Virus genome (UHGV): UHGV-0390817
Source: a virus
Strand: one strand, 5' to 3'
Length of the DNA: 42,021 bases
A program made the translations under genes and the position numbers. Under the pieces are notes generated by a model. The model was not told where the DNA came from and searched no databases. It saw nothing but the letters and a program-made list of their open reading frames with translations. This document shows positions 7,290 through 37,453 of this stretch, piece after piece. Within the stretch, counting starts at the first letter, position 1. The number at the start of each line of letters is the position of its first letter.

Positions 7290-7319
7290 GGGGCCACCTC
7301 CGGGCGGCTCTTTTTCTTT
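7290..7319 (+). terminator. putative intrinsic terminator closing the accessory operon
   Basis: A stem GGCCACC/GGCGGC(T)C with one A-C mismatch, followed by TTTTTCTTT. Confidence 0.4.
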
Positions 7320-7344
7320 ACCAAAACGATTGGAGGTGAGCCAG

Positions 7345-7920
7345 ATGGCATTAACGCCAAAACAGAAGATATTTGCAGATGAATACCTGATTGACCTTAA
7401 TGCCACCAGGGCTTACAAGGTTGCGTATCCGAGCTGCAAGAAGGATGAGGCCGCGGCGGTCAACGGTAGTAAGCTGCTAAGAAATACTAAGGTTGCGGAA
7501 TATATCCAGGAGCGCATGAAGGACCGGGAAAAGCGTACTGAGATTACCCAAGATTGGGTGCTGGAGGAGCTGCGGAAGATTGCCAGTGCAAACGGCACCG
7601 ATTTTGCACATGTTGTGCGGGAGCCGGTTATCCGGAACAACTCTTATGTTGTGGATCCAGATACCGGTCAGATGCAGACAAGGGATGTGGTTCGAATAAT
7701 CCCGACCGAAGAACTGCCAGAGGAGAAGCGGGCGGCTATCTCCGCAATCAAAGAAACTAAGTTTGGAATAAACGTGAAAACCTATGATAGGGTAAGAGCC
7801 CTGGAGCTCCTGGGGCGCCATCTGGGGATGTTTAAGGATAAGGTGGAGCTGTCCGGTGGCCTCGATATCGAAAAGACCAAACTGGATGACCTGCTCCAGC
7901 AGATGCGTGGCGGTGGCTAA
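7345..7920 (+). CDS. terS: terminase small subunit (Terminase_2-like)
   Basis: The N-terminus MALTPKQKIFADEYLIDLNATRAYKVAY is characteristic of this family. The RBS ggaggtg is present, and the gene immediately precedes the large terminase. Confidence 0.85.
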   Translation: MALTPKQKIFADEYLIDLNATRAYKVAYPSCKKDEAAAVNGSKLLRNTKVAEYIQERMKDREKRTEITQDWVLEELRKIASANGTDFAHVVREPVIRNNSYVVDPDTGQMQTRDVVRIIPTEELPEEKRAAISAIKETKFGINVKTYDRVRALELLGRHLGMFKDKVELSGGLDIEKTKLDDLLQQMRGGG

Positions 7921-10888: not shown

Positions 10889-11060
10889 GAAACAGGGGTA
10901 TGCGGAGCTGCGCTGTGATAAGTGCAGCAGCGTGACCCAGCTTAAGGACCTGACCAGACAGTTCAAGGCGCAGGGATTCAGGGTACATGCCAACAAAGGT
11001 GGCCAACTGATGGAGGGTGGAGCTGATGGAGCGGAAGGGGCGCTGATGAGTGCGACATAA
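10782..11060 (+). CDS. hypothetical 92-aa protein whose 5' end overlaps the portal 3' end by 107 nt in another frame
   Basis: A strong RBS aagggagga precedes the ATG at 10782, and the composition is coding-like. The long overlap leaves its reality uncertain. Confidence 0.35.
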   Translation: MKVKVMNRLYQMSQKEYQGLLQVAKEQVPLGIYAIEKQGYAELRCDKCSSVTQLKDLTRQFKAQGFRVHANKGGQLMEGGADGAEGALMSAT

Positions 11061-12537
11061 TGAGTATGATATAGGTGCTGCCTTCCAGGCCATAGAGGAT
11101 GAGCTTATAAAGTCTATGATACGGAACATGGACCGCCATCGCGCCGAGGAGACTAAGGAGGGTATTGAGTGGTCCATGTGGCAAACGGAACAGTTGAAGG
11201 CCCTGGAGAAGTATAAGAAGGATAACCAAAAGCGATACCGAAAGCAATTCCAGGACCTTAACAAGGAAATGGGTGAACTGATACGGATATCCAGGCAAAG
11301 AGGCAACATGCAGCAGGAAATCCAGATTCTGAATGCAATCCGCAAAGGATTTCCGGCCAGGAAAATCAACAAGGGAGCCACTGCAGAGTTCTTCCGGCTG
11401 AATGACCGTAAGCTGGAAGCGCTTATCAAGGCCACTACCAATGACATGGAGCGGGCTGAGACCGCAGTTCTCCGCATGGCTAACGACCAGTATCGGAAGG
11501 CCATTTTTAATGCCCAGGTATATGCCAATTCAGGCGCCGGTACCTATGAAAAAGCCGTGGATATGGCCACCAGGGATATGCTCTCACGGGGCCTTAACTG
11601 TGTGGAGTATGCCAATGGTGCCCGCCATACCCTATCAGATTATGCCGACATGGCCATCCGGACGGCCAGCAAGCGGGCGTATCTGCAAGGAGAAGGAGAG
11701 AAGCGTCAAGAATGGGGGATTACTACCGTGATTGTCAACAAGCGCGGGAACCCGTGTCCGAAGTGCCTGCCATTTGTCGGTAAGGTCCTGATTGACGACG
11801 TTTGGTCCGGCGGAAAGAAATCCGATGGGCCGTATCCTCTCATGAGTAAGGCCATTGCAGCCGGCCTGTACCATCCCAGATGTAAGGACAGCCACGCAAC
11901 ATACCTTCCTGGGATTTCCACAGCAGATGATACTTGGACGAGGGAGGAACTGGATGCCGTTGAACGGGCAAATCAGAAGGAGACAAAGCGGCAGTATGCA
12001 GAGCGTCAGGCTGAAAAGTTCAGGCGGCTGGTAGCTTATTCGCTGGACAAGGAAAATCAGGAACGGTATATGGCAAAGAGAGAAGAATGGGGAACTATTG
12101 CAAAAGATACAGAACCTGATATAATAAAGCCAATAGACACAGAAGAGGAAATACAGGTGCATCCAGTCGGAAAGATAGACAAAGAGGTATATAAGTGTAT
12201 TACGGAAGACATAGTCACAGACGAAGTTATTATAACAGATGAGCGTATCGGACATATTAAAGAACGCCATCCCAATGATTACGAAAAATACTGTGAGTAT
12301 TTGAAACTAATTGTGGAGGAACCGGACTATATTGTTGAAACAAAGAAACCCAACACAGCGTTAATCCTAAAAGAAATAAAGGAATCTAACGAACGGCAGT
12401 TTAAAACTGTGCTTAGATTGACAACATCAACGGATAATCCAGGATTTAAGAATTCCATCATAACATTTATGAAAATAGATGAAAAGGAATGGAATAGATT
12501 GCTTAGAAATAAGCTAATCCTTTACAAAAAGGAATAA
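11050..12537 (+). CDS. MuF-family (SPP1 gp7-like) minor head / head morphogenesis protein with an extra AT-rich C-terminal domain of about 150 aa that looks toxin- or nuclease-like
   Basis: Its position after the portal is typical. The central region containing GNPCPKCLPFVGKVLIDD is MuF-like. The C-terminal tail from about 12060 has a compositional shift and the motif ITDERIGHIKERHP. The start is a GTG; an alternative ATG lies at 11116. Confidence 0.7.
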   Translation: MRHNEYDIGAAFQAIEDELIKSMIRNMDRHRAEETKEGIEWSMWQTEQLKALEKYKKDNQKRYRKQFQDLNKEMGELIRISRQRGNMQQEIQILNAIRKGFPARKINKGATAEFFRLNDRKLEALIKATTNDMERAETAVLRMANDQYRKAIFNAQVYANSGAGTYEKAVDMATRDMLSRGLNCVEYANGARHTLSDYADMAIRTASKRAYLQGEGEKRQEWGITTVIVNKRGNPCPKCLPFVGKVLIDDVWSGGKKSDGPYPLMSKAIAAGLYHPRCKDSHATYLPGISTADDTWTREELDAVERANQKETKRQYAERQAEKFRRLVAYSLDKENQERYMAKREEWGTIAKDTEPDIIKPIDTEEEIQVHPVGKIDKEVYKCITEDIVTDEVIITDERIGHIKERHPNDYEKYCEYLKLIVEEPDYIVETKKPNTALILKEIKESNERQFKTVLRLTTSTDNPGFKNSIITFMKIDEKEWNRLLRNKLILYKKE

Positions 12538-12697
12538 AAATGATACAATGTGAGTAACATAAAAGAGAAGTTATCTGAGGTGGAAGATTTCGTACCCGTC
12601 CACACGCCGATGGTTTGACAGGGGAAACCCGAGAGATGCAGGAGCATGGTACGCCTGCCAGATAACTTCTTGATTATGTGAATTTATAGAATTTTAA

Positions 12698-12729
12698 TAC
12701 CACCAGTCAGTAATGGCTGGTGGTATTTT
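12698..12729 (+). terminator. strong rho-independent terminator after the MuF gene
   Basis: A perfect 9-bp stem TACCACCAG/CTGGTGGTA with a 10-nt loop, followed by TTTTATTT. Confidence 0.7.
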
Positions 12730-12733
12730 ATTT

Positions 12734-12749
12734 GTTGCGATATCGCAAC
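12734..12749. promoter_or_regulatory. perfect 16-bp palindrome GTTGCGATATCGCAAC (copy 1), 8 nt upstream of the RBS of gene 12764
   Basis: The sequence is read directly. An identical copy occurs at 27154-27169. Confidence 0.6.
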
Positions 12750-12763
12750 GGAAAGGAGCATAA

Positions 12764-13105
12764 ATGAAGTACAGGAAAAAACCAGTGGTAATTGAGGCAT
12801 TCCAGTGGACGGGAGGGCCGGAGCAGGAGGATGACCCTGAGTGGATTATCGAGGCAGTCAGGAATGGGAGTGCCTGGTTTGAAAACGAGGGAACCCCAGA
12901 AGTGAAATTCATGATTCGGACACTGGAAGGGGTACACGAAGCCAGTATCGGGGATTACATTATCCGTGGTATAGCTGGGGAGATATATCCATGTAAGCCG
13001 GATATCTTTCTTGCAACTTACGAGCCGGCAGTGACGAAAGTTTCCATGAATGTTACGGCACATCTGGATGAAGATGAAATCAAACATGAAACGGACGGGT
13101 TATAA
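12764..13105 (+). CDS. small acidic hypothetical protein; candidate immunity partner of the MuF C-terminal domain
   Basis: The RBS aaaggagc precedes the ATG. The gene sits between the MuF and scaffold genes, where structural modules are normally contiguous. 113 aa, rich in Glu and Asp. Confidence 0.5.
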   Translation: MKYRKKPVVIEAFQWTGGPEQEDDPEWIIEAVRNGSAWFENEGTPEVKFMIRTLEGVHEASIGDYIIRGIAGEIYPCKPDIFLATYEPAVTKVSMNVTAHLDEDEIKHETDGL

Positions 13106-13253
13106 TTTGCGATAAGCACGCGGGATTATCCTGGGTGCTATTTTTACGCCCAAACACGAGCATGGCTTTAAACGGCTGCGTGGCCAGTGACACTGATGAC
13201 AATGGATGAAACGAAAATCACAGGGTGACACCCTTAAAATGGAGGTATGGATT

Positions 13254-26659: not shown

Positions 26660-27109
26660 ATGAAGATGGATAAGGTGAAAGCAGCGTTTGTTGCAGCATT
26701 TAGCATGATTTTTGGGTGGCTGGGAATTCTGGCAGTTCCAGTGTTGATACTGGCCGGATTGAATTTCACAGACTACATAACCGGCATCCTGGCATCAAAA
26801 CGGCGCAATGAGCTGGTGACCAGTGACAAGGGACTGTGGGGCATCGTCAAGAAGATAGGTATGTGGATATTGGTAGGTTTAGGATGGGCTATGGACGTGC
26901 TGATTAATTACGCCAGCCAGTATGTAGGACTGTCTATTAAACTGCCCTTCGTGGTTGCTACCATCGTGGCCGTGTGGCTAATATGTAATGAGATTATTTC
27001 TATCCTGGAGAATCTGCTGGATATCGGTGTGGCCATGCCACCGTTTTTAATGCCGCTGGCCAAGATGATTAAGGGTCAAGTGGAGGATAAGACAAAAATG
27101 GATGCCTGA
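26660..27109 (+). CDS. holin (TcdE/phage_holin_4_1-like)
   Basis: 149 aa with three hydrophobic TM segments and a charged C-terminus, directly upstream of the endolysin gene. Confidence 0.8.
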   Translation: MKMDKVKAAFVAAFSMIFGWLGILAVPVLILAGLNFTDYITGILASKRRNELVTSDKGLWGIVKKIGMWILVGLGWAMDVLINYASQYVGLSIKLPFVVATIVAVWLICNEIISILENLLDIGVAMPPFLMPLAKMIKGQVEDKTKMDA

Positions 27110-27153
27110 GAGAAGGTGGTCCGTATATCTCCCGGTCACGGGGTTAAGCGGGT

Positions 27154-27183
27154 GTTGCGATATCGCAACTTGTGACGTCACAA
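27154..27183. promoter_or_regulatory. copy 2 of the 16-bp palindrome GTTGCGATATCGCAAC, immediately followed by a related 14-bp palindrome TTGTGACGTCACAA
   Basis: Read directly. The two share the pattern TTGyGA-yr-TCrCAA. Confidence 0.6.
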
Positions 27184-27191
27184 CTTTTCAT

Positions 27192-27222
27192 GGCCTGGGA
27201 GTGGTCCCGGGCCTTATTTTTT
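27192..27222 (+). terminator. strong intrinsic terminator between the holin and endolysin genes, ending 5 nt before the endolysin RBS
   Basis: A 9-bp stem GGCCTGGGA/TCCCGGGCC with one G-U pair and the loop GTGG, followed by TTATTTTTT. Confidence 0.6.
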
Positions 27223-27239
27223 AATTGGAGGAAAACACT

Positions 27240-28013
27240 ATGAGTAAAACATCAGCAGGATTAATACAGCACTGTAAGGGTAAACTGGGAACTCCCTATG
27301 TCTACGGCGCCAAAGGCGAGGTCCTTACCCCGACCATCCTGGACAGGCTCGCCCGGGAGAACCCAGGCACATACACATCCGCCTACAAGGCCAAGGCGGC
27401 CAGGTACATAGGCCAGCGCTGCACGGACTGTTCTGGCCTCATCAGCTGGTACACCGGACGTATCCGCGGCAGCTATAACTACCATGACACAGCCGTGGAG
27501 CGGGTAGATATCGACCACCTGAATGAGTCCATGACCGGCTGGGCGCTCTGGAAGCCGGGGCATATCGGGGTATACATAGGTGATGGATACTGCATTGAGG
27601 CCAAGGGCATCAATTACGGGACCATCAAGTCCAGAGTGGCGGTCACACCCTGGCAGAAGGTCCTAAAGCTCTGCGACATCGACTATACCCCGGTCCCAGT
27701 GACATACACCCAGGGCTTCCAGTCGGCCGCAGACGGCCAGCGCTGGTGGTATCAGTTTACAGACGGCAGCTATGCGGCCAATGGCTGGTACTGGCTCCGG
27801 GAGGCCACGGACGGTACCTGCGGCTGGTATCTGTTTGACAGCGAGGGCTATATGCTGACCGGCTACCAGGTGGACCCTGCTGGTGAGGCCTTCCTGCTCT
27901 GTCCAGTCAAGGGGTCTGACGAGGGGAAGTGCATGATTACGGATGCCAGAGGAGCTCTCCGGATTGCGGAGGAGTACGACATGGTAAATCGACGGTACGT
28001 GTTTAATTGGTAG
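27240..28013 (+). CDS. endolysin: N-terminal NlpC/P60 (C40) peptidase plus C-terminal CW_binding_1-type cell-wall-binding repeats
   Basis: The catalytic Cys motif CTDCSGLISWY and the His motif GHIGVYIGDGY are present. C-terminal repeats ANGWYWL and GWYLFDSEGYMLTG follow. The RBS ggagga precedes the ATG at 27240. Confidence 0.85.
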   Translation: MSKTSAGLIQHCKGKLGTPYVYGAKGEVLTPTILDRLARENPGTYTSAYKAKAARYIGQRCTDCSGLISWYTGRIRGSYNYHDTAVERVDIDHLNESMTGWALWKPGHIGVYIGDGYCIEAKGINYGTIKSRVAVTPWQKVLKLCDIDYTPVPVTYTQGFQSAADGQRWWYQFTDGSYAANGWYWLREATDGTCGWYLFDSEGYMLTGYQVDPAGEAFLLCPVKGSDEGKCMITDARGALRIAEEYDMVNRRYVFNW

Positions 28014-28049: not shown

Positions 28050-28391
28050 TCAATCATAATAATGGAGTACAACATAATGAGCCAGCGCATCAATAAAGGC
28101 GCCGTTCCGCGGCTTTTGTGCCAACTCAAAGCCGAAAACCTGGTTTAAAAGATTCCGGTCTCCATGGAGCCAAATAGTATTAATGATGGTGCGTATATTG
28201 CGTTCTACACATCCCACAGATGTTTGGTAGCGGGCGGCAATTTCTACGTATAGCCCTTTGGATATGTAGGTAAGCAGTTCTGGGTTCGCAATAGCGCGGA
28301 TTACACCATAAATAGTATAGCGGAATCCTACGTAGGAATTATTGACGCCAAGCCGTCGAAGCAAGTTACTGGTTTCTCTTTCGTATTTCAT
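28050..28391 (-). CDS. stand-alone Spo0A C-terminal (DNA-binding, Spo0A_C) domain protein with no receiver domain
   Basis: The 113-aa product LLRRLGVNNSYVGFRYTIYGVIRAIANPELLTYISKGLYVEIAARYQTSVGCVERNIRTIINTIWLHGDRNLLNQVFG...KPRNGAFIDA aligns motif-by-motif with the B. subtilis Spo0A effector domain (GVPAHIKGY...ELLGSITK.LYPDIAKK..TTASRVERAIRHAIEVAW..G...FG...KP.N.EFIA). A strong RBS ggaggg precedes the ATG at 28391; the track ORF extends further upstream without an RBS. Confidence 0.75.
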   Translation of the reverse strand: MKYERETSNLLRRLGVNNSYVGFRYTIYGVIRAIANPELLTYISKGLYVEIAARYQTSVGCVERNIRTIINTIWLHGDRNLLNQVFGFELAQKPRNGAFIDALAHYVVLHYYD

Positions 28392-28615
28392 GCTAGCCCT
28401 CCTAAAATTTTTTACATTATAAAAGTAACTATTAGGAGGGGGACTATCAAGGGAAGGGGGACAACAAAAAGTTACAAAAGGTATCATAAAATGCGGGAAG
28501 ATAAATGGGGAATGATTCTTTTGGGGTAGGCCGGCATACATAGGGTCTGGTTCAGATAGATTTCCAAAAAAACATACTGACATTGCCTTAATGCCATGCT
28601 ATAATAAAACCAGAA

Positions 28616-30153: not shown

Positions 30154-30376
30154 TATATCATCTCCTGTTCCTATCATGTATATGAGTTTAGGGGATGTTT
30201 CAATTCTCATTTCGGTCCATATTATAACCCATATTACAGCCTGTAAGATTTTGGTGAGCTTTGAAAAAAGGGTATAAAAAATACGCCCCTTGCCAGGACG
30301 CTCCAGGAATGATATAATTTACTTGCTTAGGGTAATTATATCTTCCAGGCGTACCTGGTAAGAGAAAATCTATGTG

Positions 30377-31930: not shown

Positions 31931-32641
31931 TTACAATGACTGTGCTCTCAAAGAACCCAGAATTATTCTCGTTGGTGACAGCAAATCATTAAATGGATAT
32001 GGTTCCTGGCTGGCCTTAGCATCGCATATAGGACAGATACAATCACCAGGTCGGTTATAAAAAGTCCGTCCACAGTAGAAACATTCGGTCTCAGCACAAA
32101 TAAACCTTTTAGACTTGGTTTTATAAAAGTAGCTATACATCGCCCAATCAACTGGATACATTTTGTGTGTGGCTCTGCTATACCATCTACGGTAAGCGGC
32201 AAAGGCATTATGAGCAGCTTCGTCCGACAATCCGAAATGTCTATGCACATCCCAAGCACTTTCGCAATGGCAGTAATGGATTACCATACTGGGAGCTAAT
32301 ACGTAGCTTGCAAAACAATTGGCTTCTTTCTCATAATAGTCCGCTTTGTAAGGATGCTCAAGCACTATATGACCCAGCTCATGGGCCAGTGAGAAGATAA
32401 TTCTATCTGATGGTTTATCTTCATTGTAAGCAACTGTCCGGCTAAATGGCTCAGTATATGCCTCGTCAGAACAGGAGGCACATAGTTCATATACTTCTGG
32501 ATTCTTTTCTTTCAATTCGCTGTATGTATAGACGTGATATCCATACTTTCTAATAGCTGAAATACAGTCAAATGGAAATTTCTTAAATTCACAAAAGGTA
32601 TATGTTTCTAGTACTTTTTTCAGTATAAAATCGTGATTCAA
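31931..32641 (-). CDS. ImmA/IrrE-family metalloprotease (anti-repressor protease)
   Basis: The HEXXH motif HELGHIVLEH is present. The gene lies directly downstream of, and on the same strand as, the XRE repressor, a classic ImmR-ImmA arrangement. Confidence 0.8.
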   Translation of the reverse strand: MNHDFILKKVLETYTFCEFKKFPFDCISAIRKYGYHVYTYSELKEKNPEVYELCASCSDEAYTEPFSRTVAYNEDKPSDRIIFSLAHELGHIVLEHPYKADYYEKEANCFASYVLAPSMVIHYCHCESAWDVHRHFGLSDEAAHNAFAAYRRWYSRATHKMYPVDWAMYSYFYKTKSKRFICAETECFYCGRTFYNRPGDCICPICDAKASQEPYPFNDLLSPTRIILGSLRAQSL

Positions 32642-32646
32642 TCAAA

Positions 32647-32970
32647 TCAGTCCTCATTATTTATTTCGGACAGTAGTTTGATTAGACGCATTTTCTGTTC
32701 AACAGACATCTGCTTACCATTTCTGGCCACAAGGCGTTCCACATCCGCATAAGTGGGTTCTGGAACCACCTTCTTTTCTCTATCGTCGAAGTCATCAAGC
32801 GACAACCCAAGAACATGAGCGATAGATTTAAGCGTTTCAAGTTTTGGGTCTTTTGTGGCACCGCTTAATATCTTATTCAACGTTCCCAGAGGGACTCCAG
32901 ATTTTTCAGATAATTCCTCCGTGGTTAATCCTAACTTTTTTTTGTATTCTGCAATTTTCTCCAGTCCCAT
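32647..32970 (-). CDS. XRE-family HTH repressor (cI / ImmR-like)
   Basis: HTH LTTEELSEKSGVPLGTLNKILSG. Transcribed divergently from a Cro-like gene across an operator-rich intergenic region. Confidence 0.85.
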   Translation of the reverse strand: MGLEKIAEYKKKLGLTTEELSEKSGVPLGTLNKILSGATKDPKLETLKSIAHVLGLSLDDFDDREKKVVPEPTYADVERLVARNGKQMSVEQKMRLIKLLSEINNED

Positions 32971-33021: not shown

Positions 33022-33031
33022 GCAAAATTTA

Positions 33032-33041
33032 CCGTTAACGG
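33032..33041. promoter_or_regulatory. operator O1: perfect 10-bp palindrome CCGTTAACGG
   Basis: Read directly. Confidence 0.6.
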
Positions 33042-33062
33042 AAAGAAAATGTAAAAAATGGG

Positions 33063-33091
33063 TTGACTTTTACCGTTAAAGGATATATACT
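33063..33091 (+). promoter_or_regulatory. rightward early promoter: -35 TTGACT, 17-bp spacer, -10 TATACT, with operator O2 CCGTTAAAGG (33073-33082) inside the spacer
   Basis: Hexamers and spacing are read directly. Confidence 0.6.
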
Positions 33092-33103
33092 TTCAATAAA
33101 TAA

Positions 33104-33113
33104 CCGTTAACGG
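33104..33113. promoter_or_regulatory. operator O3: CCGTTAACGG, between the -10 and the RBS of the Cro-like gene
   Basis: Read directly. Confidence 0.6.
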
Positions 33114-33130
33114 ATAGAAAGGAGGATAAC

Positions 33131-33340
33131 ATGTACTACCGTTTGAAGTTTGAAATTAGCAAAAGGGGATTTACAATAGAAAAATTTTCACTTTTGCTTA
33201 ATATTTCGGAAAAATCATTGCGGAATAAAATTAAGGGGTCAACAGAGTTTTCCTGGTCGGAAGTACTAAGGATTCGGGATTTGATTGACCCCACAATGTC
33301 CTTGGAGGAGTTATTTAAAAAAGAGGACAAAATTGCCTAA
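33131..33340 (+). CDS. Cro-like small HTH regulator
   Basis: 69 aa. HTH FTIEKFSLLLNISEKSLRNKIKG, divergent from the repressor. RBS ggagga. Confidence 0.7.
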   Translation: MYYRLKFEISKRGFTIEKFSLLLNISEKSLRNKIKGSTEFSWSEVLRIRDLIDPTMSLEELFKKEDKIA

Positions 33341-35021: not shown

Positions 35022-35481
35022 TATTACAGGACTCGATACAATCGCACAGGCAATCAATAACCTGGCGCAGGCGTTAGGAAAGGGAGGAATGACTGCTTCC
35101 TTTAGTGAATCTACTCCTGCCGGCCCGCAGTCAACGCAGATGGCTGGGAACTATCAGAACCCAGGACCGGTAACTTCGGGGCCGCAGCAGTCAGGCCTTC
35201 CTGGTACTGGTACTGCAGCTGCAGGACAGCCGGGTATGATGCAATACCAACAGCCTTTCACGGGCCAGGCCGGTCAGGGAGCACTGCCAACGACAGCCAC
35301 CACACAATCCTATACCCAGGACCAGATAGCCATTGCACTGACCGGACTCATCGACCAGGGCAAGCGGGACTATGTGACGCAGATACTGGGACAGTTTGGC
35401 GCAATGTCCCTTATGCAAGTGCCGGTTGAACGGTATCCGGAACTTGTGACGCAGTTGAGAGGGGCAGGTGCAAACATCTAA
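35002..35481 (+). CDS. Gln/Gly-rich hypothetical early protein
   Basis: The RBS acggagga precedes the ATG. 159 aa. Confidence 0.5.
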   Translation: MANMNINITGLDTIAQAINNLAQALGKGGMTASFSESTPAGPQSTQMAGNYQNPGPVTSGPQQSGLPGTGTAAAGQPGMMQYQQPFTGQAGQGALPTTATTQSYTQDQIAIALTGLIDQGKRDYVTQILGQFGAMSLMQVPVERYPELVTQLRGAGANI

Positions 35482-36704
35482 TGGCAGAAGAGAGGAAACA
35501 CGCGTTGTTGTCGGCATCCAGTGCCAAACGATGGATAAACTGCCCGCCATCTGCGAGACTGTCCGAAGCATTTCCGGAATCAACCTCTGACTACGCGGAA
35601 GAAGGTACGCTGGCTCACGATATCTGTGAGTTGAAGCTGCGGAAATTGTTCATTGAGCCGGGTATGCCAGAAAAGACATTCAAAACTGCACACAATCAAT
35701 TAAAGAAGCACGGGCAGTATGACCCTGAGATGGAGCGCTATACGGACGAATATGTGGACTACATACAGAAGATAGCCTACAGCTATCCGGTGCCGCCTAA
35801 GATTGTGATTGAAAAGGAAGTCCATTACGGGCATGTTGCCCGGGATGGCTACGGCTTCTCTGACTGTATCATTCTGAGCGGTACAGACTGCCATGTGGTG
35901 GATTTCAAGTATGGTAAGGGCATTACAGTCAGTGCGGAGGAAAATCCGCAGATGATGCTGTATGCGGTCGGGGCTATTGCTGAGTACGGAATTGTATTTC
36001 CTGTAGAACGGGTCATCCTGCATATTGTGCAGCCACGGACAAAGAATTTCTCCCGATGGGAACTTTCAGCCAGTCGGCTCCACACCTGGTCAGAGCAGAC
36101 CGTAAAGCCTGCAGCGGAACTGGCCTGGGAAGGCAAGGGAGATTTTAGGCAGGGCTCCTGGTGTGACGACTGCTTCTGTCCTGCCGCGGGAACCTGCCGG
36201 TTCCGGATGGAGGAAAACATGGCGGCCCTGCAGAAACATACGGACCCAATTACAGGGAAGATGATACCCGCAGAACTCCTGACCAATGATGAAATTGGCT
36301 CCCTCCTTCCCCTTCTCGAATTCGTAGCACCCTGGATCAAGAAGGTCCGCGCGGCCGCTCTCGACAAACTGCTGGCGGATGAGGATGTTCCAGGGTGGAA
36401 ACTGGTGGAGGGCAGGAGCAACCGGGAGCTCCCCGACCCAGATAAGGCGTATGCCGCGTTGGTGGAGGCCGGATATAAGAAGGCCCTGTTTTACGAGCGG
36501 ATTCCGGTAACACTGACTGAGGCGGAGAAACTGATCAATAAGGATGACTACAACACAATCCTTATGCCGTTTATTGTGAAACCAAAAGGAAAACCCACGC
36601 TTGCACCTAAGGAGGACAAGCGTCCACCATACCAAAAGGACACTACCCCACAGGAGGATTTCGGTGGGGAGAATCAATATAAGGAGGAAGAAAAAACATG
36701 TTAG
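35481..36704 (+). CDS. PD-(D/E)XK nuclease (DUF2800 or Cas4-like, with a C-terminal Cys cluster)
   Basis: The N-terminus LSASSAKRWINCPPSARL is typical of DUF2800. The Cys cluster CDDCFCPAAGTC is present. Confidence 0.7.
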   Translation: MAEERKHALLSASSAKRWINCPPSARLSEAFPESTSDYAEEGTLAHDICELKLRKLFIEPGMPEKTFKTAHNQLKKHGQYDPEMERYTDEYVDYIQKIAYSYPVPPKIVIEKEVHYGHVARDGYGFSDCIILSGTDCHVVDFKYGKGITVSAEENPQMMLYAVGAIAEYGIVFPVERVILHIVQPRTKNFSRWELSASRLHTWSEQTVKPAAELAWEGKGDFRQGSWCDDCFCPAAGTCRFRMEENMAALQKHTDPITGKMIPAELLTNDEIGSLLPLLEFVAPWIKKVRAAALDKLLADEDVPGWKLVEGRSNRELPDPDKAYAALVEAGYKKALFYERIPVTLTEAEKLINKDDYNTILMPFIVKPKGKPTLAPKEDKRPPYQKDTTPQEDFGGENQYKEEEKTC

Positions 36705-37453
36705 TTGGAAGATTCAGGGCAAGTTACGCCCATGTGTTTGAGCCATCTACACCGCCAGGTGGTGGGGAGGCCAAATATCAGATAACCATGCTTATCCCAA
36801 AATCCGATGTGAATACATACAATGCAATTGTGGCAGAAATGAACCGTGCTCTTCAGGAGGGGCTGCAGAAAACGTTTGGCGGCCAGATGCCGGCAAGGCC
36901 ATCCATGCCCCTGTATGACGGTGACGGGACCAAACAGAACGGAGAGCCCTGGGGAGAGGAGTGCCGGGGCCATTGGGTACTGCGTGCATCAAGCAGGACC
37001 AGGCCTTCCGTGGTGGATATCAACATCCAGCCAATCCTTGACCCAAATGCATTTTATTCCGGCTGCTATGCCCGGGCAACCGTCAACTTTTATCCATACA
37101 ATACAAATGGTAACCGCGGAGTGGGATGCGGACTTAACAACGTGCAGAAAATTGCCGACGGGGAACCCCTGTCCGGCAGGACGACAGCAGAAGAAGACTT
37201 CGGCGGGTCCAATGCGTATGCAGGTTCCGCGGCAGCCCCGAACGGGTACGGCCAGCCGGCATATCAGGCTATGGGGTATTCCCAACCTGCACAGCAAATG
37301 CAGCCATACCAGCAGCCAGCAATGGGCGGATATCCTTCCGCAATGGCGTCTGGGTATTCAGCACCGCAGCCGGGGGCCCTGCCGCAGTACCAGCAGGCGA
37401 TTGACCCGGTGACGGGAAGGCCGCTGCCAGCCGGGGGAGTGATGGGGATTTGA
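36698..37453 (+). CDS. DUF2815-like phage ssDNA-binding protein
   Basis: The N-terminus MLVGRFRASYAHVFEP and a Gln/Pro/Tyr-rich tail are present. It is paired with a DUF2800 protein and a polA gene, a known cassette. Confidence 0.6.
   Translation: MLVGRFRASYAHVFEPSTPPGGGEAKYQITMLIPKSDVNTYNAIVAEMNRALQEGLQKTFGGQMPARPSMPLYDGDGTKQNGEPWGEECRGHWVLRASSRTRPSVVDINIQPILDPNAFYSGCYARATVNFYPYNTNGNRGVGCGLNNVQKIADGEPLSGRTTAEEDFGGSNAYAGSAAAPNGYGQPAYQAMGYSQPAQQMQPYQQPAMGGYPSAMASGYSAPQPGALPQYQQAIDPVTGRPLPAGGVMGI

Follow-up and report, generated by a model that had tools for sequence, protein, structure and literature searches.

The 16-bp perfect palindrome GTTGCGATATCGCAAC, called P1 here, is on sequence grounds a member of a previously undescribed family of palindromes which, in prophages of gut Lachnospiraceae, occupy the short spaces separating swappable genes. 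Comparison of its many occurrences firmly indicates that P1, a conserved and dyad-symmetric duplex-DNA element, belongs to portable intergenic cassettes, made up of a terminator, the palindrome and an SD sequence, which bound exchangeable modules in these prophages. The window, by which the whole analysed stretch of 42,021 nucleotides is meant, is a temperate siphovirus-like genome in which terS is located at 7345-7920 and the head and tail genes come after a small cargo ORF that directly follows one of the P1 copies. Its closest cultured relatives are phages of Anaerostipes and Enterocloster, with low coverage. No phage in GenBank or INPHARED matched either of the P1 intergenic regions, and a literature search on the 16-mer, the 14-mers or the adjoining palindrome P2 returned no relevant publication.

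A window-wide search located exactly two copies of P1, at 12734-12749 (copy 1) and at 27154-27169 (copy 2). No further match was obtained in the window even upon allowing three mismatches, the expectation from shuffles being 0.18. At a minimum length of 14 bp, no perfect palindromes are present in the window other than P1, TTGTGACGTCACAA (27170-27183) and one (TA)n run. The preliminary description of this DNA, which was made from the letters alone, had pointed to the two identical copies, had considered chance an unlikely cause and had placed each copy beside an intrinsic terminator. These observations are borne out by the exact positions, by the shuffles together with the presence of the 16-mer at 119 or more IMG/VR loci, and by the terminators T1 at copy 1 and T3 at copy 2. 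Extending the search to related phages, as had been suggested there, showed that many of them carry the same 16-mer. The two copies have only 1 nt in common beyond the palindrome (a T on the left) and are thus not part of a longer duplication, so that an origin of P1 in a larger duplicated segment or mobile-element scar inside the window is ruled out. This possibility, which the preliminary description had held against its own reading, is thereby dismissed within this genome; across phages something of it stands, as P1 is there part of portable intergenic modules at mosaic breakpoints.

Copy 1 lies between a small RNA unit and a variable gene slot. The MuF gene (11050-12537) encodes a Phage_min_cap2 domain and a C-terminal PBECR2 nuclease domain. 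The RNA unit has its own sigma70-like promoter (12521-12549, TTTACA-17-TACAAT) and specifies the skipping-rope sRNA (RF02924; 12570-12666, plus strand), which scored 48.2 bits where the gathering score is 36.7 and is the sole Rfam match above the gathering score in the window. No function has been assigned to the skipping-rope class (PMC5737381). The gene for the MuF-PBECR2 nuclease fusion is located directly 5' of the skipping-rope unit (12521-12733, plus strand), a pairing that may be informative. The intrinsic terminator T1 (12696-12733, plus strand), with a 14-bp stem and TTTTATTT, lies directly upstream of copy 1; its stem-loop (12696-12727) is followed by TTATTT and then, without a gap, by P1. 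T1 had been taken for the MuF terminator and the RBS had been placed 8 nt after copy 1. Neither assignment can be upheld: the MuF ORF ends at 12537 and T1 terminates the skipping-rope sRNA, while the SD GGAAAGGAG (12750-12758) abuts P1 and is followed by the ATG at 12764. The same order of terminator, P1 and SD is repeated at many IMG/VR and genome loci.

The slot downstream of copy 1 is occupied in the window by this SD and a 113-aa cargo ORF (12764-13105; phrog_419, function unknown), which together extend from 12750 to 13105 on the plus strand. It is closed by the terminator-like hairpin T2 (13116-13148, plus strand; hairpin at 13116-13138), which reads GCACGCGGG-ATTAT-CCTGGGTGC followed by TATTTTT and is kept at the 3' end of all slot variants. 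The slot is empty in the closest relatives L026, L303 and L333, the first two of which lack the cargo ORF and read P1-GGAAA-T2, and it contains one of at least seven cargos in others. Its contents in relatives are a Tad2-like anti-Thoeris domain protein, a DUF4406 protein, a DUF6275 protein, a 25-aa membrane peptide, or none. In L006 the slot holds two cassettes with P1 ahead of each, a double occupancy that is confined to one lineage (L006 and its relatives). At the place where L006 has a complete TTTGCGATATCGCAAC, with an SD and another small ORF after it, the window has TTTGCGATAA (13106-13115, plus strand), which resembles the left half-site of a further P1 copy, joined to T2. A direct repeat, TTGCGATA, was considered as a possible target-site duplication of the cargo gene and rejected: only the phrog_419 cassette has the repeat, and a truncated second P1 explains it better. 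This MuF-scaffold slot, at 12750-13115 in the window and present also in L020, L045, L057, L069, L070 and L006, is an accessory-gene hotspot.

Copy 2 sits, as had been described, between a Phage_holin_4_1 gene (26660-27109) and an endolysin gene starting at 27240, the latter being putative in view of an NlpC/P60 match that is weak and under the Pfam cut-off. Of 45 distinct regions collected upstream of endolysin homologues, approximately 33 have P1 at this position; these regions, like those of the cargo homologues, were gathered without conditioning on P1. Copy 2 is abutted by the P2 unit, TTGTGACGTCACAA(C) (27170-27184), a second member of the family GTTG-N8-CAAC. The kinship previously suspected between P1 and the adjoining TTGTGACGTCACAA is thus real, both being units of one palindrome family, and a terminator does follow P2. 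This intrinsic terminator, T3 (27192-27223, plus strand), has a 9-bp stem with 7 GC pairs and TTATTTTTT, and is located between P2 and the endolysin SD, its stem-loop (27192-27213) lying 8 nt past P2. Among relatives the T3 stem covaries where P1 and P2 are invariant. P2 is precisely missing in L234 and L257, and other unit types replace or supplement it in L247-L250, L253 and L305.

A recurrent, structured-looking motif (27110-27153, plus strand) abuts copy 2 on its upstream side and consists of the extended SD-like sequence GAAGGTGGTCC, ATCTCCC, a hairpin and GGGGTTAAGC. It starts directly after a stop codon and is found also in L022, L035, L051, L056, L112, L113, L336, L360, L372 and others. 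The motif is upstream of P1 in the window and downstream of it in L051, L056, L336 and L456. Its general order is AGGAGGTG(A/G)TCC, 3-5 nt, ATCTCCC and a variable helix around a conserved RGGGTNAN loop, the first element being a near-perfect complement of the 3' tail of 16S rRNA. In the 32-35 distinct versions collected, the second helix covaries by eye. Owing to misalignment of the second helix, RNAalifold on a rough alignment returned no more than a helix of 5 pairs that lacked covariation, and no match to the motif was found in Rfam. A mini-ORF running through P1 or through this motif was rejected upon manual reading, as the frames are not conserved.

Outside the window, the exact 16-mer was found at no fewer than 119 loci in IMG/VR. 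Complete scans with one-substitution neighbours gave 45 loci in one case and 72 for two sequences combined (36-45 per neighbour); many of the neighbour matches lie inside unrelated coding regions. In 596 Gb of genomes about 139 matches to P1 are expected by chance, and many matches were indeed obtained in unrelated phyla. Matches set in phage-type contexts belong to Enterocloster, Hungatella, Lacrimispora, Clostridium and further Lachnospiraceae, each genome having 2-3 of them; Hungatella hathewayi DSM 13479, Enterocloster aldenensis and [Clostridium] clostridioforme AGR2157 are examples of strains with prophages of this kind, and the Lachnospiraceae sites that were inspected are in the same phage or integrative-element contexts. 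Among 73 dereplicated viral contexts, some 24 have the order terminator-P1-(SD-gene), some 19 the order stop codon-P1-(P2)-terminator-SD-endolysin and some 9 the order stop-P1-SD-gene, with some 19 resembling chance or coding matches. A terminator lies within 40 nt of P1 in about 43 of the approximately 54 family-type contexts. As the layouts with a terminator dominate, the association noticed in this genome can be regarded as a general property of P1.

In the family-type contexts P1 is always located in a short intergenic gap, 0-11 nt from an SD or 0-10 nt from a stop codon. The genes that start 13-25 nt downstream are diverse and comprise several tyrosine integrase genes, an Xis-like HTH gene, an ORF6N antirepressor-like gene, a DUF2213 head gene and a tail-region gene, as well as cargo ORFs for the Tad2-like anti-Thoeris, DUF4406, DUF6275 and phrog_419 proteins and the 25-aa membrane peptide. 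In the stop-P1-terminator layout, the endolysin position is held by five or six unrelated, presumed lysis genes. P1 is even located in the early operon of an integrative element (L363). The earlier proposal, that late genes are gated by both sites, fails as a general rule, P1 preceding int, Xis-like, ORF6N, anti-defence and early-operon genes in relatives, and this spread of the neighbours over expression classes argues against a regulator specific for late genes.

Several 16-bp units with the constant arms GTTG-N8-CAAC were distinguished, P1 being the most frequent. The unit types are GTTGCGATATCGCAAC, (C/G)TTGTGACGTCACAAC, GTTGTAATAT(C/T)ACAAC, GTTGCACCGGTGCAA(C/T) and GTTGTAACGTTACAAC. They occur in arrays of 0, 1, 2 or 3 units whose centres are 15-18 bp apart. 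Close relatives such as L211 and L234 can differ by the precise presence or absence of one unit, and no duplication was seen at sites where a unit or a cargo is present or absent. Junctions of a terminator and an SD also exist without P1: upstream of terS (7291-7345), at the integrase-side terminator (30283-30301), and in L218 and L023. The sequence upstream of terS consists of a terminator-like hairpin, TTTTTCTTTACCAAAACGA and an SD, and thus has the layout of a P1 junction minus the palindrome. The integrase-side terminator, GCGTCCTGGCAAGGGGCGT with TTTTTTATACCC (30283-30345, minus strand; the terminator itself at 30283-30301), is also present in L040, L047, L076, L276 and L377, and has a TATAAT-like box ahead of it. 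In the window it lies upstream of the serine integrase gene and is followed by a promoter-like stretch and that gene in place of P1, and elsewhere it lies upstream of P1 and unrelated tyrosine integrase genes. The conserved terminator with its TATAAT-like box may represent a small RNA unit.

The shuffling of sequences around P1 was followed in dereplicated pairs of loci with 30 nt or more in common on one side of it. Homology ends at the edge of P1 in 219 of 391 pairs and runs on both sides in 50 of 391, numbers that are to be read beside a shifted-site control which is informative but biased, and asymmetrical because P1 identity was the selection criterion. Across P1, the arm that contains T1 is combined with 10 different partner arms, the P2-T3 arm with 6 and the arm with the integrase-side terminator also with 6.

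Taken together, these observations lead us to favour, albeit tentatively, a role of P1 as a junction or recombination element. P1 would be a portable, short, dyad-symmetric site, read as duplex DNA, at the borders of modules that can be exchanged, among them the accessory slot after MuF, the lysis genes, the integrase and excision genes and genes of the tail-fibre region, in temperate phages and integrative elements of Lachnospiraceae. It would move with its neighbouring terminator or SD, as an intergenic cassette of 60-90 bp that is common to co-circulating elements, and recombination at or beside it would exchange the flanking genes. This could proceed by homologous recombination via the phage exonuclease and single-strand annealing protein, or by cutting or strand exchange by a putative dimeric, palindrome-recognising protein. 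Presumably the recombination occurs at P1 itself, P1 not merely lying where breakpoints are tolerated, and presumably a protein binds to the site.

The junction reading is put first because it explains the diversity of the neighbours, the shuffled arms, the polymorphism of the slot, the stacked cassettes and the half-site. The breaks at the P1 edge (219 of 391 pairs) and the 10 partners of the T1 arm speak for it, and the phage carries recombination genes: 35481-36704 encodes an exonuclease and 36698-37453 a Gp2.5-like annealing protein. It is also consistent with the number of exact P1 loci (119 or more, compared with 36-45 per one-substitution neighbour), with the restricted range of hosts, with a family of perfect palindromes that have a constant arm pattern, with the use of the P1-P2 pair in both orientations and with the invariance of P1 where the adjacent terminator drifts, the latter in spacers selected on a near-exact P1. 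Against it, no P1-specific recombinase or endonuclease was found, a length of 16 bp falls short of typical recombinase core sites and is marginal on its own for homologous recombination, and the double cassette with preceding P1 copies is limited to the lineage of L006. Moreover, breakpoints are expected at gene boundaries regardless, so that a conserved regulatory site at such a boundary would look like a junction too. A version in which P1 is a passive linker leaves its higher conservation than that of the adjacent terminator unexplained.

Precisely such a regulatory site is invoked by the next alternative, which we consider rather unlikely: P1, together with P2 and the like, would be the operator of a dimeric phage or host protein that bars RNA polymerase from the next gene. 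As a roadblock, this protein would form a second lock beside the terminator; in the lysogen it would, for example, keep transcription that reads through from the sigma70-driven sRNA unit out of the cargo and head genes, and likewise stop read-through into the endolysin gene, in a manner resembling that of the phiC31 CIRs and the stoperators. The dyad symmetry, the invariance, the discrete unit types and the tandem arrays of up to 3 units would all fit an operator, and the invariant TTG and CAA triplets are, judging from the sequences, about one helical turn apart, as in operators of helix-turn-helix dimers. The terminator beside P1 in about 43 of about 54 family-type contexts, the position of copy 1 directly after an sRNA unit with its own promoter-like site, and the nature of the genes that follow P1, of which int, xis-like, antirepressor and endolysin genes are life-cycle effectors, point in the same direction. 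The operator reading thus explains symmetry, invariance and terminator placement equally well as the junction reading.

What weighs against an operator is found mainly in the immunity region and in the distribution of P1. The minus strand of the window carries a large serine integrase gene, an ORF with a Spo0A_C domain and an ImmA/HTH_3 immunity module, in which the ImmA/M78 peptidase (31931-32641) lies upstream of the HTH_3 repressor (32647-32970, minus strand). Between this repressor and a cro-like gene (33131-33340, plus strand), three CCGTTAACGG-type repeats are located at 33028-33130. This region is likely to be the immunity switch and is unrelated to P1; no GTTG-N8-CAAC site is present in the immunity region between 32970 and 33131. 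The immunity operators thus are a different palindrome, whereas CIRs and stoperators reuse the operator of the repressor. In addition, there are just 2-3 P1 sites per genome, the spacing of the units varies from 15 to 18 bp, the same site is present in elements with different integrases and regulatory regions, and no regulator co-occurs with P1, the Spo0A_C ORF being present at a minority of P1 loci.

A promoter to go with an operator was not found either, in promoter scans or by manual inspection. The promoter scan detected no sigma70 promoter at P1, where TTGCGA as the -35 sequence would place the -10 sequence over the SD and the start codon. Promoters of the sigma70, sigma54, sigmaD or ECF type in P1 or in the spacer between terminator and P1 were rejected upon manual inspection, as there is no consistent -10 sequence and the spacing of TTGCGA-N-TATAAA on the reverse strand varies from 12 to 20 bp across loci. 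To our knowledge, P1 fits none of the motifs of LexA, CcpA (cre), Rex, CRP/FNR or PadR-type regulators (ATGT-N8-ACAT). It does recall a 4+8+4 geometry that we take to be PadR-like and that may serve as a lead.

The Spo0A_C ORF (28053-28583, minus strand), between the endolysin and serine integrase genes, specifies only the C-terminal DNA-binding domain of Spo0A (PF08769, 1.4e-28) and could be a mimic, carried by the phage, of the master regulator of sporulation. The ORF adjoins the endolysin gene in only a minority of relatives and, at 7-12 loci, does not track with P1. The Spo0A 0A-box (TGTCGAA) was rejected as the identity of P1, since the half-sites differ by an indel and the ORF does not track P1. 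Elsewhere in the genome, two overlapping plus-strand ORFs (1803-2264 and 2212-2628) match the N- and C-terminal parts of a single PHROG family, phrog_15077, and may be a frameshifted or split gene.

Both the junction and the operator reading take P1 as duplex DNA. It is distinctly improbable that P1 acts instead upon transcription, as an RNA hairpin with a 6-bp stem and an AUAU loop just 5' of the SD or 3' of the stop codon, which would process or stabilize the messenger (5' protection after cleavage of the U-rich linker) or would serve in nut/boxB-like antitermination at T2 or T3. P1 is always found in transcribed intergenic spacers near an SD or a stop codon, and each copy has a terminator (T2 or T3) downstream of it in the direction of transcription. 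The P1 hairpin has a predicted stability of -6.9 kcal/mol (z = -4.7), and a series from C-G through U-G to U-A exists in P1, L134 and L133. On the other hand, the hairpin predicted for P2 is weak (-3.2 kcal/mol, z = -1.4), and copy 1, lying downstream of T1, cannot affect termination at T1. No credible Rfam match overlaps either P1 site at E values up to 10, and no N-like antiterminator was recognised in Pfam and PHROG scans of the early ORFs. P1 itself fails as an intrinsic terminator, being followed by GGAAAGG or TTGTGAC in place of a U tract, and terminator scans call T1 and T3 but not P1.

The central tetramers of all unit types (ATAT, ACGT and CCGG) are self-complementary, which a loop in RNA would not need to be. 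When single-transition variants were oriented by their flanking genes, the sense strand had A·C in 8 or more and G·U in 4 contexts at pair 6-11, and A·C in 3 and G·U in 5 contexts at pair 5-12; an independent oriented sample contained 3 A·C and 6 G·U. The sense strand thus has A·C as often as G·U. With respect to transcription the P1-P2 pair can face either way, its orientation in L062 and L117 being opposite to that of the holin-endolysin layout. Across 31 distinct holin-endolysin spacers there is essentially no variation in P1 and P2, a constancy that for P1 is inflated because the spacers were chosen by a near-exact P1 match, while the stem of the adjacent terminator has undergone compensatory substitutions and many aligned positions differ in the endolysin gene. 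Self-complementary centres, the lack of a G·U bias, both orientations and the invariance of P1 and P2 point to a constraint on duplex DNA, and argue that P1 acts as a site read in that form, not as an RNA hairpin. Of the two mechanisms put forward in the preliminary description, RNA antitermination or processing is thus disfavoured by the symmetry and wobble tests. The dimeric DNA-binding regulator survives in part: the symmetry favours a dimer that reads duplex DNA over an RNA hairpin, but none of the proposed binders is linked to P1 and the CI/Cro operators are of the CCGTTAACGG type.

A bolder form of the junction reading, to which we give still less credence than to the hairpin, would make GTTG-N8-CAAC the recombination site of an integron-like, site-specific system for cassette exchange. 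A putative dimeric recombinase or nuclease would cut the centre of the palindrome and move promoterless [P-SD-ORF] cassettes with anti-defence, lysis or integrase genes from one co-resident prophage of gut Lachnospiraceae to another, leaving hybrid sites and the half-site (13106-13115) as its footprints. Least probable of all is that P1 has no function of its own, is kept perfect by template-switch repair and hitch-hikes with widely exchanged terminator and SD modules: P1 is optional, the same terminator-SD junctions existing without it, and neither a binder nor a promoter was found, but the exact sequence is present at 119 or more loci compared with 36-45 for one-substitution neighbours, is invariant while its flanks drift, and recurs beside unrelated terminators and flanks.

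Prophages of gut Lachnospiraceae are abundant and have hardly been studied experimentally, and P1 provides a sequence-defined mark of the places where their accessory, lysis and integration modules join. If it is a recombination site, it would explain the shuffling of anti-defence cargo, such as the Tad2-like gene, and of lysis genes, and would offer a searchable landmark for cargo slots. If it is an operator, there would be a regulon common to many elements, which would point to a regulator that is possibly encoded by the host.

Several known systems share features with P1. With the nut sites (boxB) of phage lambda it has in common that a genome contains two near-identical, short inverted repeats, both located inside an operon with a terminator downstream. 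However, the loop of boxB, which functions as RNA, is asymmetric and conserved, whereas P1 has a symmetric centre, has no wobble bias, is used in both orientations and is also found ahead of integrase and xis genes. Arrays of integron attC sites are comparable in having a palindrome at the cassette boundary, promoterless cargo ORFs with an SD, slots that are empty, single or double, and GTT...AAC as outer bases. The attC sites are 57-141 bp in length, imperfect and active as folded single-stranded DNA, with IntI encoded next to attI; P1 is a perfect palindrome of 16 bp with no IntI-like gene adjacent. In P1, GTTGCGA does not fit GTTRRRY of the attC R''/R' cores (RYYYAAC...GTTRRRY), and the integrase of the window is a large serine recombinase located 1.5 kb away. 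With REP sequences and BIMEs, P1 has in common that short palindromes, single or in tandem, are located just past stop codons and near terminators. REPs are imperfect, measure 20-40 nt and have hundreds of chromosomal copies, whereas P1 has 2-3 copies per Lachnospiraceae genome. No target-site duplication of the MITE type was seen at the sites of presence and absence.

The closest parallels are found in other phages. Mobile regulatory cassettes of T4-type phages, the PeSLs, were reportedly described by Arbiol et al. in 2010, and 'linker/boundary' sequences are said to have been recognised in lambdoid phages by Clark et al. in 2001. In these systems as in that of P1, an intergenic cassette of a few tens of bp with a stem-loop flanks variable ORFs, and homology breaks there. 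PeSLs carry an early promoter, whereas none was found for P1, which belongs to temperate phages of Firmicutes and is a perfect palindrome of 16 bp that comes in discrete allelic types. The conserved inverted repeats (CIRs) of phage phiC31, reportedly reported on by Ingham et al. in 1994, are palindromic, dispersed repressor sites. The stoperators of Cluster A mycobacteriophages such as L5 and Bxb1 are near-identical short sites in intergenic gaps outside the immunity region that are read on duplex DNA (PMC9283540, PMC6550527). P1 is similar to both in that its near-identical copies (two and a related unit) are all intergenic, lie close to gene starts or ends and belong to a temperate phage. 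CIRs and stoperators are the operator of the repressor itself and number approximately 18-30 per genome, in contrast to P1, which differs from the immunity operator and has 2-3 copies. As it is not the immunity operator and has no promoter, P1 departs from the defining feature both of the stoperators and CIRs and of the PeSLs and linkers. Stoperators are asymmetric and orientation-dependent, whereas P1, known here from its sequence, is palindromic like the CIRs. Unlike either of these repressor sites, one and the same P1 16-mer is common to elements with different integrases and regulatory regions.
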